From: Vibrio vulnificus CMCP6
Lineage (GTDB): Bacteria > Pseudomonadota > Gammaproteobacteria > Enterobacterales > Vibrionaceae
NCBI RefSeq assembly: GCF_000039765.1
Contig: NC_004459.3
Span: 2,451,127 to 2,483,126, forward strand
Direction of reading: 5' to 3'
DNA: 32,000 nt
Positions 18,830 through 23,191 of the stretch are shown piece after piece (within the stretch, counting starts at the first letter, position 1; every line of letters begins with the position of its first letter). The position numbers and the translations under genes are program-made. The notes beneath the pieces were generated by a model, which did no database searches, had not been told where the DNA came from, and saw only the letters and a program-made list of their open reading frames with translations.

Positions 18830-19627
18830 ATGGAAGAAAAGTACAAAATCCACTCATTTTATATTCTAACAATTCTTTTAACGATAATTGTACTGTTAGT
18901 TACCGTAGAGTGGTCGACAATAGAAGGATTGAAAGATTACATATCTTTTGCACTTACTGTGTTTTCACTAGGTTTAGCTATTATAGCTATCATTTATTCT
19001 ATGTATTCAAACTCATCTCTTACGTCGAGTTTAACGTTGCTGGAGACTTCAAGTAGTAAACTATCTTTGACATCAGAAAGTCTTTCTTCGTCTACTAATC
19101 AATTATCGGAAACTGTTCGAGGTATCCCAAAGGCCATTGAAAAAGTAGAATCCAGAGTTTCTGAAACTCATGATTTAGTTAAAAATTTGGAGTTAAGTGC
19201 TCCACCTTCAAATATTGTCGGGAATGTATCTGACGAGCTATCCGAGGGGTTTATAAATGACTTTATTAGTAGGTTATCTTACAACGGATTACTAACATTG
19301 TTTACTATCAACTTTTTCTATCGTCACAAAATGATATTTGAATTTGACGGAGAATTAGTAGAAGCGATGGAAATGGACAAAGATTATGCATTTGCTTCGT
19401 TTATAGCGATGAAAGCTATGGGGCTATTTAAAGTTAAAGATAAAGGAAGTGCTTATTTGGTAGTCGATTTTCATCCATATACCGACTCAATGATTGTCAA
19501 AGGGTTGAATGAAAAAATAGGCGAGTTGTTTTCTGATGAAGAAGACTTACTAAACGAAGTGAAAGAGGATTTCAATCGCTTTCAAGCTTATTTAAACTCA
19601 AAAATGGAAGCAGAAATCGCAGAATAA
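18830..19627 (+). CDS. 2-TM membrane-anchored hypothetical protein, 265 aa
   Basis: SD gagga; two N-terminal TM helices, a Ser/Leu-rich helical linker, and a C-terminal globular part of unknown family. Confidence 0.75.
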   Translation: MEEKYKIHSFYILTILLTIIVLLVTVEWSTIEGLKDYISFALTVFSLGLAIIAIIYSMYSNSSLTSSLTLLETSSSKLSLTSESLSSSTNQLSETVRGIPKAIEKVESRVSETHDLVKNLELSAPPSNIVGNVSDELSEGFINDFISRLSYNGLLTLFTINFFYRHKMIFEFDGELVEAMEMDKDYAFASFIAMKAMGLFKVKDKGSAYLVVDFHPYTDSMIVKGLNEKIGELFSDEEDLLNEVKEDFNRFQAYLNSKMEAEIAE

Positions 19628-20072: not shown

Positions 20073-20199
20073 AACTAACAAAGCATTCAAGAGGGATTCA
20101 CAACGCTTGGCAGTTTTGGTTTGAATCAGCTTTAGTGTTTACGGCACAATAGCTTAGGTTGGGTGGTGGCGTTGTTCACCCCTTAATGCGGCGTTATAT
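20073..20199 (+). repeat. attC site 32 (subtype IV, 127 bp)
   Basis: R'' AACTAAC / R' GTTATAT. Confidence 0.9.
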
Positions 20200-20352
20200 G
20201 CAGTGCAGCTCTGAAACATAGACATTAAGCTAAATTTATGATTTATGTGACCTCAGTTGCTTATTGTCATTCTTATTATCACTAAACTTGTCGAGTCTGT
20301 TCAAAGCAGAACATTGGCTTGCGAAATACAACGGAGATAATAAGGAAATATA

Positions 20353-20493
20353 ATGAGAGTCTTAATTTTATTGTTGGCTACATTGTTTGTGAGTAATTCT
20401 GTCCTAGCTCATGGCGGAGGGTGTCGTAAGAGTTCACCACCTGGTCAATGTTGCCACAAAGACAATAGTACAGGCACAGTACATTGCCACTAG
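20353..20493 (+). CDS. small secreted Cys/His-rich peptide, 46 aa (absent from the ORF track)
   Basis: SD aagga (20342-20346); MRVLILLLATLFVSNSVLA then HGGGCRKSSPPGQCCHKDNSTGTVHCH (4 Cys, 4 His in 27 aa); only plausible ORF in this cassette. Confidence 0.6.
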   Translation: MRVLILLLATLFVSNSVLAHGGGCRKSSPPGQCCHKDNSTGTVHCH

Positions 20494-20505
20494 TCTGAAC
20501 CTTGC

Positions 20506-20632
20506 ATATAACAAGGCATTTAAGAGGGATTCAAAACGCGTGGCATTTGCGGTTTGAATCCATTTTTGTGTGTACTTTGTTCAATTTTAAATTGGGGGTA
20601 AGCGTTTTTCACCCCTTAATGCGGCGTTAGCT
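20506..20632 (+). repeat. attC site 33 (divergent subtype IV, 127 bp)
   Basis: R'' ATATAAC / R' GTTAGCT. Confidence 0.85.
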
Positions 20633-20672
20633 AACCAACGTAAGAATAATAATATGTAGTAAGGAAATATAG

Positions 20673-21548
20673 ATGGCAGGTAATTTTCGAGTTCATGCAT
20701 TTGGTATTGTTGGACTAAACGACAAAACTGATGACTTAGAGGACGTTTTAAACGATATACTCGCTGATGATATCGAGGACCGTGTTAGAACAATTGGTCA
20801 ACACGAGATTCGAGTAGAACATATTGAGAAGGTTGACGGTGTATGGCATCTAGACTTTGTGAAATTTCGTGATGTTCATGGACCTGGTAAAGGTTCGAGA
20901 AAGACAAAGGTTTTAGGCTTTGACTTTAAGGCGGGTGAAGTTTTTTGTGAGGAAACTGCATTAATGTACTGCCCTAAGCGCAGTTACATTTTACTTCAGT
21001 ATAACCATCATGGGGTTCGGTATTCTGCTATAGAGGATTACTTCAGTGTTTATAGTGGGAACCCTGATAATCAATATGAGCTTCAAGCCAAGTACGATGA
21101 TGATGTGGATCGCAAGTTTACATCTAGGAAAGCGACTAAGTCGCTAACCTTGGCAATCGATCCTAGGCTGTTAAGCGATAAGGATCGAGACTCAAAGACA
21201 GCATTAGGCAGTGCAATTGAGTTGGGTGACAAGTCAAATGCGTCGAAGATTGAAATTACTATCACAGCAGGCAGAGAGAAGAAGCGTTTTCTTTCAAAGT
21301 TTATCGACGATACTGCGACAAAAATGAAAAAACTTGCAGAGAAAAATCCTGATGCAGTAGGTAAATTGCGTGCAGGAGTTGTTAGCTCGGGCGTCGATGA
21401 AAAACTGCAAGTTTTAGACTTAATTGAAGAGCGTTTGTGCCGAAACTTTACTGATATCCCTGTAGGCAACGATAAACGTTGGCCCAGAGATGCGAGATAT
21501 AAAGCTCTCGAAAGGGCACGACGCGGTTGGAAAAAAATAATGGGTTAA
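20673..21548 (+). CDS. hypothetical soluble protein, 291 aa (gene 1 of a two-gene cassette)
   Basis: SD aagga (20661-20665); no TM segments; motif Y-x-P-x8-Y-N-H (residues 99-112); family not recognised. Confidence 0.8.
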   Translation: MAGNFRVHAFGIVGLNDKTDDLEDVLNDILADDIEDRVRTIGQHEIRVEHIEKVDGVWHLDFVKFRDVHGPGKGSRKTKVLGFDFKAGEVFCEETALMYCPKRSYILLQYNHHGVRYSAIEDYFSVYSGNPDNQYELQAKYDDDVDRKFTSRKATKSLTLAIDPRLLSDKDRDSKTALGSAIELGDKSNASKIEITITAGREKKRFLSKFIDDTATKMKKLAEKNPDAVGKLRAGVVSSGVDEKLQVLDLIEERLCRNFTDIPVGNDKRWPRDARYKALERARRGWKKIMG

Positions 21549-21553
21549 TTTTT

Positions 21554-21976
21554 ATGCACTTATATGTTGAAAAATCATATCCATATGTTTTGGCTTCAGG
21601 TGCCAGCTTTGCGTGGTTCTATTTCAAAATGTCGTTTCCAGTAGGGAACGACATTTTGTCAGCATCTCTAACAATTGGAGCCATACTTACTGGCTTTTTA
21701 GCTACAGCAAAAACATTGCTTATGACTTTAGATACGCCTGTAATGAATAGGATCCGAAGTACAGCTTATGCTCAAGATTTAGCCTCTTACCTTGGTGAAG
21801 CTATTTGGCTATGCTTTGGCTTTTGTGTCTTAGCAATGGTTGGCTACTTTTGTAGTACTAGTAAACTTTGGTACGGGGTTGTTTGGATTTTTATTTCAAT
21901 TGCAGCGTCATTTGCTTTCATTAGGGTGACGACGATCATGCTCAAAATCATTAAGCACCAACCAAGCAAAAGTTAG
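21554..21976 (+). CDS. small 4-TM membrane protein, ~140 aa (gene 2; alternative TTG start at 21527 overlapping gene 1)
   Basis: ATG 6 nt after the upstream stop; four hydrophobic helices by eye; basic C-terminal tail. Confidence 0.75.
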   Translation: MHLYVEKSYPYVLASGASFAWFYFKMSFPVGNDILSASLTIGAILTGFLATAKTLLMTLDTPVMNRIRSTAYAQDLASYLGEAIWLCFGFCVLAMVGYFCSTSKLWYGVVWIFISIAASFAFIRVTTIMLKIIKHQPSKS

Positions 21977-22100
21977 CTAACAAACAATTCAAGAGTGATT
22001 CAGCACGCTTGGCATTTTTGGTTTGGGTTCGGTTCAGTGTTTACGGTGTTCAAATGAAATGTCGTGGCAGCGTGCTTCACACCTTAATTGGGCGTTAGCT
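21975..22100 (+). repeat. attC site 34 (divergent subtype IV, 126 bp)
   Basis: R'' AGCTAAC / R' GTTAGCT. Confidence 0.85.
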
Positions 22101-22190
22101 TACTCGCAAGCAGTAATACTATAAGCAGACTCAGAGTATTAGCATTTTGTTATTATTTCATCATTTCTATGAGTGATATCGGTATTAATA

Positions 22191-22538
22191 ATGTCTAACT
22201 TCAATGTTGTGTTGGTGACCAGTTTTCTGTTCAATTTTGCGTTAGACATGATGGAAACTGAGAGTTTTAGGCTTGTAGCAGTAATGGTTTCCTTCTTTGT
22301 GTCGCTGTCGTTTATCCTAGATCAACAAACTTGGTTTCTATCGACGGCAGAGAAGTTTGCTGATTGGTCAAAGGCGTTTTTCATTGCCTATGTAACTTGT
22401 GAAATTACGCTGGTCATAAACTTGGTTTATGTCGTAGTTAACAAGTACAGTGTGAGTTCAATGGCTTGGTATACGCCAAGTTTATTGCTAGGCGCATTTT
22501 CTCTCTACAGGATGAGAAAAAACGCAACGTCTCAGTAA
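22191..22538 (+). CDS. small multi-TM membrane protein, ~115 aa (alternative GTG start at 22173)
   Basis: hydrophobic throughout; weak SD, so the start is uncertain. Confidence 0.6.
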   Translation: MSNFNVVLVTSFLFNFALDMMETESFRLVAVMVSFFVSLSFILDQQTWFLSTAEKFADWSKAFFIAYVTCEITLVINLVYVVVNKYSVSSMAWYTPSLLLGAFSLYRMRKNATSQ

Positions 22539-22684: not shown

Positions 22685-23191
22685 ATGGAAGTAATATCTG
22701 AAAGGCTACGGATGAAGCCATTATCGGGAAATGACTTGTCTTTATTTCTACAACTCCATACAAACCCAAGTGTCATTTCGCTCTGTTTCGATGAACTGCC
22801 AAAGTTAGAAATTGAGAGTAAATTTAAATCTCGATTAGCACCTTGGTTTGTAGATTCGGAGCATTGGTTATGTTTAGTTGTTGTCGAGTCCACAACGAAT
22901 AAAGCAGTAGGTATAACAGGTTTTTGTGTTAACGATTCTGTTGCTGAAGTTGGGTTTATGTTTTTACCCGAATATCATGGGCTCGGGTATGGTACAGAGT
23001 CACTGCAAGCCCTCATAAATTATTCAATGTCAGAGTTCGGCATCGATAAATACAGTGCAGTTGTCACCGAGGGCAACATTGGTTCCGAAAAGGTACTTAC
23101 AAAAGTGGGTTTTGTGCTCGATAGGATAGTGCCTCAAGCTTATGAAATTGGTGGTCATTTGTACGCAGACCATGTCTACAAATATGCGTAA
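22685..23191 (+). CDS. GNAT family N-acetyltransferase (RimJ/RimL-like), 168 aa
   Basis: SD aaggaga; ERLRMKPLSGNDL.. N-terminus and HGLGYGTES motif. Confidence 0.8.
   Translation: MEVISERLRMKPLSGNDLSLFLQLHTNPSVISLCFDELPKLEIESKFKSRLAPWFVDSEHWLCLVVVESTTNKAVGITGFCVNDSVAEVGFMFLPEYHGLGYGTESLQALINYSMSEFGIDKYSAVVTEGNIGSEKVLTKVGFVLDRIVPQAYEIGGHLYADHVYKYA

Follow-up and report, generated by a model that had tools for sequence, protein, structure and literature searches.

A Vibrio vulnificus integron cassette that probably encodes a distant RexAB-type abortive-infection module

The 32,000-nucleotide stretch of Vibrio vulnificus CMCP6 DNA analysed here (contig NC_004459.3, positions 2,451,127 to 2,483,126; hereafter the window) contains an integron cassette with two tightly packed genes, which we call gene 1 and gene 2. 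This cassette probably encodes a distant RexAB-type two-component module for abortive infection (phage exclusion), with the roles of the two proteins and the expected phenotype assigned by analogy. Gene 1 belongs to the Pfam family DUF6731 and its product has a RexA-like fold, while the product of gene 2 has a four-transmembrane architecture. The two genes are strictly paired and keep the same order, and the pair resides in prophage immunity regions, in integrase-linked islets and in integron cassettes. An earlier reading made from the letters of the window (the sequence-only reading) had proposed, in general terms, a compact two-gene module for defence or abortive infection that pairs a cytosolic protein with a minimal membrane effector and is carried by a sedentary-integron cassette. 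This general proposal holds up in the analysis described below.

Results

Open reading frame calling confirmed both genes at the positions given in the sequence-only reading, packed within one cassette. Gene 1 (20673..21548, + strand; ATG at 20673, TAA at 21546-21548) encodes a cytosolic protein of 291 amino acids. No family had been recognised in the two proteins, and for gene 1 this proved wrong: in addition to having the RexA fold, it exceeds the gathering threshold of Pfam DUF6731 (PF20505), which it matches over residues 18-257 with 79.7 bits against a cut-off of 27 (E 3.4e-22). The same Pfam family was matched by all 51 diverse relatives of gene 1. When 1.84 billion cluster representatives were scanned with HMMER, DUF6731 was detected at E<=1e-3 in 1,619 clusters (50% identity) and at E<=1e-10 in 906. 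The NCBIfam scan returned nothing for either protein, and the PHROGs scan returned solely families of unknown function, one of which is weakly matched by gene 1. When isolated phages and plasmids were searched by tblastn with gene 1, no phage record was found, and the one plasmid recovered, from Niallia, carries a protein annotated as DUF6731.

The structure of the gene 1 product was modelled with AlphaFold2 from a 22-sequence alignment (predicted local distance difference test score (pLDDT) 78, predicted TM-score (pTM) 0.71). Upon comparison of this model with the PDB by Foldseek, the best match was lambda RexA (8twq_B; E 1.1e-6, prob 1.00), over the full length. The next matches were E. coli RdgC (2OWL and 2OWY; E 1e-3 to 7e-3) and kinetochore CENP-N/L. 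The paper on the RexA structure gives RdgC and CHL4/IML3 as structural relatives of RexA (PMC11077077), and the match set of our model is thus the fold group reported for RexA. The succession of secondary-structure elements also mirrors RexA, which is built of a globular domain divided into two segments (residues 1-139 and 248-279) and a dimerization domain (143-234) (PMC11077077): in the model of gene 1, residues 1-139 form seven strands plus helices and are followed by a middle part with four strands and four helices, by two further short strands (245-259), and then by a C-terminal helix.

Since RdgC forms the second-best group of PDB matches, and phage RdgC proteins appear in the BFVD match list, gene 1 could instead be read as a host RdgC-like DNA-binding regulator of recombination, with the membrane protein as a co-transcribed unrelated or housekeeping partner. 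We consider this very unlikely. RexA scores ~1000-fold better than RdgC, and neither gene 1 nor any of its 51 relatives matches Pfam RdgC. The family shows a patchy, mobile pattern of occurrence (integron cassettes, prophages, integrase islets), unlike that of a core gene, and the invariable four-transmembrane partner is a feature of Rex; RdgC is encoded by a stand-alone gene and is not known to have such a partner.

Gene 2 (21554..21976, + strand; ATG at 21554, TAG at 21974-21976) encodes a RexB-like protein of 140 amino acids with four transmembrane segments. Of the two starts that the sequence-only reading had offered, ATG 21554 stands, because the N-terminus conserved among homologues ('M..L..EK.yPY', seen in an alignment with 31 homologues and in the envelopes of profile hidden Markov model (HMM) matches in other loci) begins there. 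The alternative, TTG 21527, which would give 149 amino acids, was dropped, as the upstream extension is not conserved among homologues. The four transmembrane helices that had been read from the sequence are borne out by an AlphaFold model (pLDDT 84; helices 3-23, 33-58, 72-97 and 105-134), which has an extra short helix within the central loop. This loop, TLDTPVMNRIRSTAY (residues 58-72), is conserved, with Y72 invariant, and the C-terminal tail is basic. The distribution of charges suggests that the N-terminus, the C-terminus and the central loop are all cytoplasmic, which is the topology proposed for RexB and for Sbash gp31 (PMC6426596).

Comparison of gene 2 with the RexB family by hhalign gave a collinear alignment of up to 115 columns with 23-25% identity (P 0.0015-0.0026), and with a score of 25.7 as against 12.5±2.0 for shuffled-column controls (maximum 20.1, n=40) and 13.5 for the reversed control. 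Although none of 30 gene 2 homologues matched Pfam RexB, three of them (from loci L014, L016 and L022) matched the PADLOC RexB model over nearly the whole length (E 3e-4 to 4e-3), and a RexB HMM built here also matched the L014 homologue. In BFVD, the third-ranking match of the gene 2 model was a 165-amino-acid Sbash protein, which has the length of gp31 (TM-score 0.61, prob 0.99). These links of gene 2 to RexB are individually weak yet mutually consistent.

We then turned from the proteins to their pairing, for which HMMs of both were run on the six-frame open reading frames of all fetched loci. The pairing set comprised the window, 28 loci, 8 loci and 11 viral loci, that is, 48 loci, ~35 of them distinct. 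A gene 2 homologue was found directly downstream of full-length gene 1, on the same strand, in 48/48 loci, down to ~25% identity. Co-occurrence of the pair in other genomes, which had been left to be checked, thus holds in every locus with a full-length gene 1, far beyond chance. The paired loci span Alpha-, Beta- and Gammaproteobacteria, a Ghiorsea genome and IMG/VR viral contigs, and the genes, separated by 5 nt in the window, overlap by 4 nt in relatives. The exceptions to pairing are three weak or partial DUF6731-like matches accompanied by no recognisable gene 2 homologue (L029, from Terribacillus, L055 and L056), which were left out of the member count. The DUF6731-like proteins of L056 (3171-4888) and L055 (3105-4686) are weak matches (E 1e-16 to 1e-18), and they are followed by differing open reading frames that the gene 2 HMM did not recognise; the one in L056 encodes 225 amino acids and opens with a hydrophobic segment. 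These two loci may represent additional Rex-like variants whose membrane partner is a different one.

The best BFVD matches of both models come from one uncultured phage, Siphoviridae sp. ctylc9: A0A8S5S8L2 for gene 1 (314 amino acids, E 5e-19, TM-score 0.67) and A0A8S5S8H0 for gene 2 (172 amino acids, TM-score 0.75). This suggests that ctylc9 carries a more distant version of the pair.

The surroundings of the relatives include the arrangement known from lambda. One lambdoid prophage (L006/L007, with NinB and YbcO) has a Peptidase_S24 repressor gene followed by the DUF6731 gene and then by the gene for a 136-amino-acid protein. The S24-DUF6731 order recurs in a P2-like prophage of Vibrio fluvialis (L033, which also contains Phage_GPA, CP76 and an integrase), where the gene for a 141-amino-acid protein comes next. 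The two prophages are unrelated, and the order in them is the cI-rexA-rexB layout of lambda, with a CI-like repressor in first place. Elsewhere the pair is adjoined by a tyrosine integrase (L016, L037/L038), by KfrA (L018, L019) or by an HTH_3 protein (L027), and some copies are small islets with housekeeping genes on either side. V. cholerae arrays (L031/L032) likewise carry the pair as a cassette, and the window copy itself is a cassette without a repressor.

These settings bear on another explanation, which we regard as unlikely: that the pair mainly serves the maintenance and regulation of prophages and other mobile elements and does not kill phages. The RexA-like protein would then modulate DNA transactions or the switch between lysis and lysogeny, its RexB-like partner would be an anti-death or addiction factor, and the array would be stabilised as it is by toxin-antitoxin cassettes. 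RexB stabilises antitoxins by inhibiting ClpP. In favour of this explanation are also the position of the pair in the immunity region of prophages, the many toxin-antitoxin cassettes of chromosomal integron arrays (a ParE/YafQ toxin is present in the V. cholerae array L031), and the ability of lambda RexA to bias the bistable switch without RexB and to bind DNA non-specifically (PMC11077077). However, since repressors and prophages are missing from the neighbourhood of many copies (the cassettes, the islets flanked by housekeeping genes and the KfrA-linked loci), modulation of the switch cannot be the common function. In addition, the strict coupling to a membrane protein better fits a sensor-effector pair, and related pairs that were tested experimentally do block phages. 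We prefer abortive infection of the RexAB type.

A number of results nevertheless weigh against a RexAB-type module. There were no matches to Pfam RexA at E<=1 among gene 1 and its 51 relatives. No link was found when the gene 1 alignment was compared with RexA alone (BLAST and hhalign, P 0.46), or when 163 DUF6731 proteins were compared with 4 RexA sequences (hhalign, P 0.09), and HMM searches of PDB sequences with the gene 1 profiles missed 8TWQ. As all direct sequence tests were negative, the link of gene 1 to RexA is one of fold. The global TM-scores of the gene 1 model against 8TWQ are low (0.39-0.41, root-mean-square deviation 16 A), which could be explained by the closed conformation in the crystal, the comparison being one of whole chains. 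Neither lambda RexA nor lambda RexB is among the 50 best BFVD matches of the two models. The product of gene 2 in the window matched no model in Pfam, NCBIfam or PADLOC, RexB included; the hhalign probability of its relationship to RexB is just 12-16%, and four-helix membrane bundles align easily, so that the RexB profile signals are weak when taken one by one. The literature search found no mention of DUF6731. Lastly, a simple consensus scan detected no sigma-70-like site upstream of gene 1 on the + strand, where the leader is just 41 nt, and, as no promoter-like site was found there, this position in the array may be one at which the cassette is silent.

The links to RexA and RexB are all fold-level or weak profile signals, and the Rex mechanism is itself only partly understood (PMC11077077). 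Both points would suit a superinfection-exclusion or other membrane-acting system whose likeness to RexAB is confined to the fold (a system blocking DNA injection, for instance), or a two-gene system of unrelated mechanism. Such an explanation seems to us improbable, given that sizes, gene order, topology, the central loop motif, fold and position in the immunity region agree independently, and that a cytosolic protein with the RexA fold would be unexpected in a block of injection. A RexAB-type module remains the reading that we favour.

The flanking attC sites, on which the sequence-only reading had based the limits of the cassette, are genuine: their 3' cores were located, and both flanking sequences could be aligned with further attC sites in the window. 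The cassette (20627..22094, + strand, 1468 bp) consists of a 41-nt leader, gene 1, a 5-nt gap, gene 2 and its own attC; its limits are the G/TT crossover points (the slash marks the crossover) of the two R' cores. The attC of the preceding cassette (20505..20631, + strand; 5' limit approximate) has its 3' core G/TTAGC at 20626-20631, which is the left boundary of the cassette, and the cassette's own attC (21972..22099, + strand; 5' limit approximate) has its R' core G/TTAGC at 22094-22099. In both sites the 3' core reads GCG/TTAGC (GCGTTAGC; 20624-20631 and 22092-22099). The attC on the left flank can be aligned both with attC sites elsewhere in the window and with those of the Aeromonas locus L001, the attC on the right flank aligns with other attC sites, and the stop codon of gene 2 (21974-21976) sits at the 5' edge of the cassette's own attC. 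Across the window, CCTTAAYNNRGCGTTA is matched with <=1 mismatch by 47 attC 3' ends, every one of them on the + strand; the number expected by chance is 0.03. The whole window (1-32000) is one integron cassette array, with attC sites spaced ~450-2000 bp apart.

As read from their translations, neighbouring cassettes encode a 265-amino-acid protein with a hydrophobic N-terminal segment (18830-19627), a 121-amino-acid hydrophobic protein (22173-22538) and a 168-amino-acid protein that looks like a GNAT acetyltransferase (22685-23191). The cassette directly upstream of the pair (20197-20627) contains an open reading frame (20353-20493) for a 46-amino-acid peptide that has a signal sequence and a tail rich in Cys and His (…AHGGGCRKSSPPGQCCHKDNSTGTVHCH). 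Five viral contigs (L045-L049) have, directly upstream of the DUF6731 gene, an open reading frame for a secreted YHYH-type protein (…AHPGGLDANGGHYNRKTGEYHYH…; 3166-3459 in L045). The parallel is probably a coincidence, because in the window an attC separates the peptide gene from the pair. The same five contigs have, just upstream of the pair (~2130-2830), an open reading frame starting MRIRALIKQLEDAGFVLVRTRGDHR, whose product may be HicA-toxin-like, and, further upstream of that frame, a fragment that resembles an S24-peptidase repressor.

A copy of the cassette with 97% nucleotide identity over 1408 bp (window 20612-22018) and with attC-like flanks is present in Aeromonas dhakensis. In this genome (GCA_046640425.1; L001, 5820-7440) the cassette has a SpoU methylase gene on one side and RNase R on the other and is accompanied by other small unannotated genes, in what looks to be a cluster of attC sites outside Vibrio. 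In A. jandaei (L005) a pair with 61% identity occupies the same chromosomal spot as in A. dhakensis.

Discussion

Should the cassette encode a RexAB-type module, we would expect the following course of events. Both genes would be translated as one unit. Gene 1 would provide a cytosolic sensor and activator similar to RexA, probably a dimer, which probably binds DNA or a nucleoprotein or protein cue made by the phage. Gene 2 would provide a RexB-like four-transmembrane effector of the inner membrane, with cytoplasmic termini and a conserved basic central loop on the cytoplasmic side, which probably assembles into an oligomeric channel or pore. Upon infection, gene 1 would activate gene 2, the membrane would depolarise or leak, ATP would fall, and the infected cell would halt growth or die before the release of phage progeny. 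The DNA binding, the sensor and effector roles, the depolarisation and the anti-phage phenotype put forward here are all modelled on lambda RexAB, Sbash gp30/gp31, RexABpp of Pseudomonas putida and Sucellos of V. cholerae.

A wider proposal, which we find quite possible though a little short of probable, is that the pairs of DUF6731 and four-transmembrane proteins constitute a large third lineage of Rex-like abortive-infection systems (~1,600 clusters at 50% identity). This lineage would differ in sequence from both lambda RexAB and Sucellos, might have a phage trigger of its own, and would move between prophage immunity regions and integron cassettes. The A. dhakensis copy would then reflect a recent transfer of a defence cassette between genera by integron recombination.

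For DUF6731, a sizeable family that Pfam lists without a function, the analysis offers a functional hypothesis, and it defines the obligatory four-transmembrane partner of DUF6731 proteins, which itself belongs to no family. It adds a further case for sedentary integrons as stores of compact anti-phage systems. It also places one module in three settings, namely as a pair in the immunity region of prophages, as an integrase-linked islet, and as a mobile cassette that is near-identical between the array and Aeromonas. If the proposed function is true, comparison with lambda RexAB and Sucellos could help to show what RexA-like sensors recognise and how RexB-like proteins are gated.

The pair was also compared with two entries of defence-system collections. 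The likeness to Kiwa (KwaA/KwaB) drawn in the sequence-only reading was rejected, as the PADLOC scan of both proteins gave no Kiwa match and the gene order is reversed relative to Kiwa; order and sizes are those of rexA-rexB. The second candidate is PADLOC PDC-M67, of which our literature search found no mention. Gene 1 has a weak, partial match to PDC-M67A (residues 63-162, E 7e-5, 20 bits), which is matched by 42 of the 51 diverse DUF6731 proteins, gene 1 included (best E 1.5e-9). PDC-M67B is weakly matched by three of the 30 gene 2 homologues, that of L016 among them (best E 0.0089), and gene 2 itself does not match it. PDC-M67 looks like a sister family, and not the same family as the window pair.

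RexAB-like pairs that are recognised by fold and not by sequence are already a known kind, and several of them share features with the pair described here. Sbash gp30/gp31 and gp44/gp43 of Gordonia phage CarolAnn likewise combine a soluble RexA-like protein with a four-transmembrane protein (PMC6426596). Sbash gp31 has a cytoplasmic loop at its centre that is functionally essential, and the R70A substitution in gp31 abolishes defence (PMC6426596); a short hhalign match, in an alignment that is not statistically significant, sets N65-R66 of the gene 2 loop opposite N69-R70 of gp31. Profile comparisons of Sbash gp30 and gp31 with gene 1 and gene 2 gave no significant match, and the Sbash system differs in that gp30 has 372 amino acids and a DUF4747 motif and the hosts are actinobacterial. 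RexABpp of Pseudomonas putida prophage P1 (PP_5643/PP_5644) is an anti-phage system with abortive action (PMC12894663). It is Rex-like mainly through the RexA fold, its four-transmembrane partner has no detectable homology to RexB, it lies near a CI-like repressor, and the membrane damage it causes requires the RexB-like protein (PMC12894663). Compared by description only, RexBpp is longer than the 140-amino-acid gene 2 product, as a residue mutated in it is at position 181.

Sucellos (sclA/sclB) is a RexAB-like two-gene cassette of the chromosomal integron of V. cholerae N16961 (cassette 68 of the array, upstream of VCA0373) with anti-phage activity (Darracq et al., bioRxiv 10.1101/2024.07.02.601686); both genes are needed, the action is abortive, and homologues are found in prophages (bioRxiv 10.1101/2024.07.02.601686). 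With such a cassette already validated, and RexAB-like pairs being of a known kind, the term 'undescribed system' used in the sequence-only reading does not apply. By description, the window pair and Sucellos are alike in that each has its two genes in one cassette of a Vibrio-type sedentary integron and is RexAB-like by predicted structure and not by Pfam; homologues of both pairs are found in prophages. Sucellos differs in having its own promoter and an insertion sequence (IS) insertion, neither of which was seen in the window cassette. Close kinship with Sucellos is not indicated: proteins of the N16961 type are not among the close homologues, since none of the matches had as large a membership as a protein of pandemic V. 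cholerae should have; compared by description and by the membership of homologues, the window pair is at best a distant relative.

The differences from lambda RexAB itself are that gene 1 falls in another Pfam family, DUF6731, with no detectable sequence similarity to RexA, that gene 2 of the window scores below the Pfam and PADLOC RexB models, and that the pair is here a repressor-less integron cassette. The likeness lies in the layout, a soluble protein of ~280-290 amino acids followed on the same strand by a four-transmembrane protein of ~140 amino acids (140 in gene 2 and 144 in lambda RexB, each with four transmembrane segments). It lies as well in RexA being the best PDB match of gene 1 and in the collinearity of gene 2 with RexB above controls, and, in two prophages, in the position of homologous pairs directly behind a CI-like repressor.

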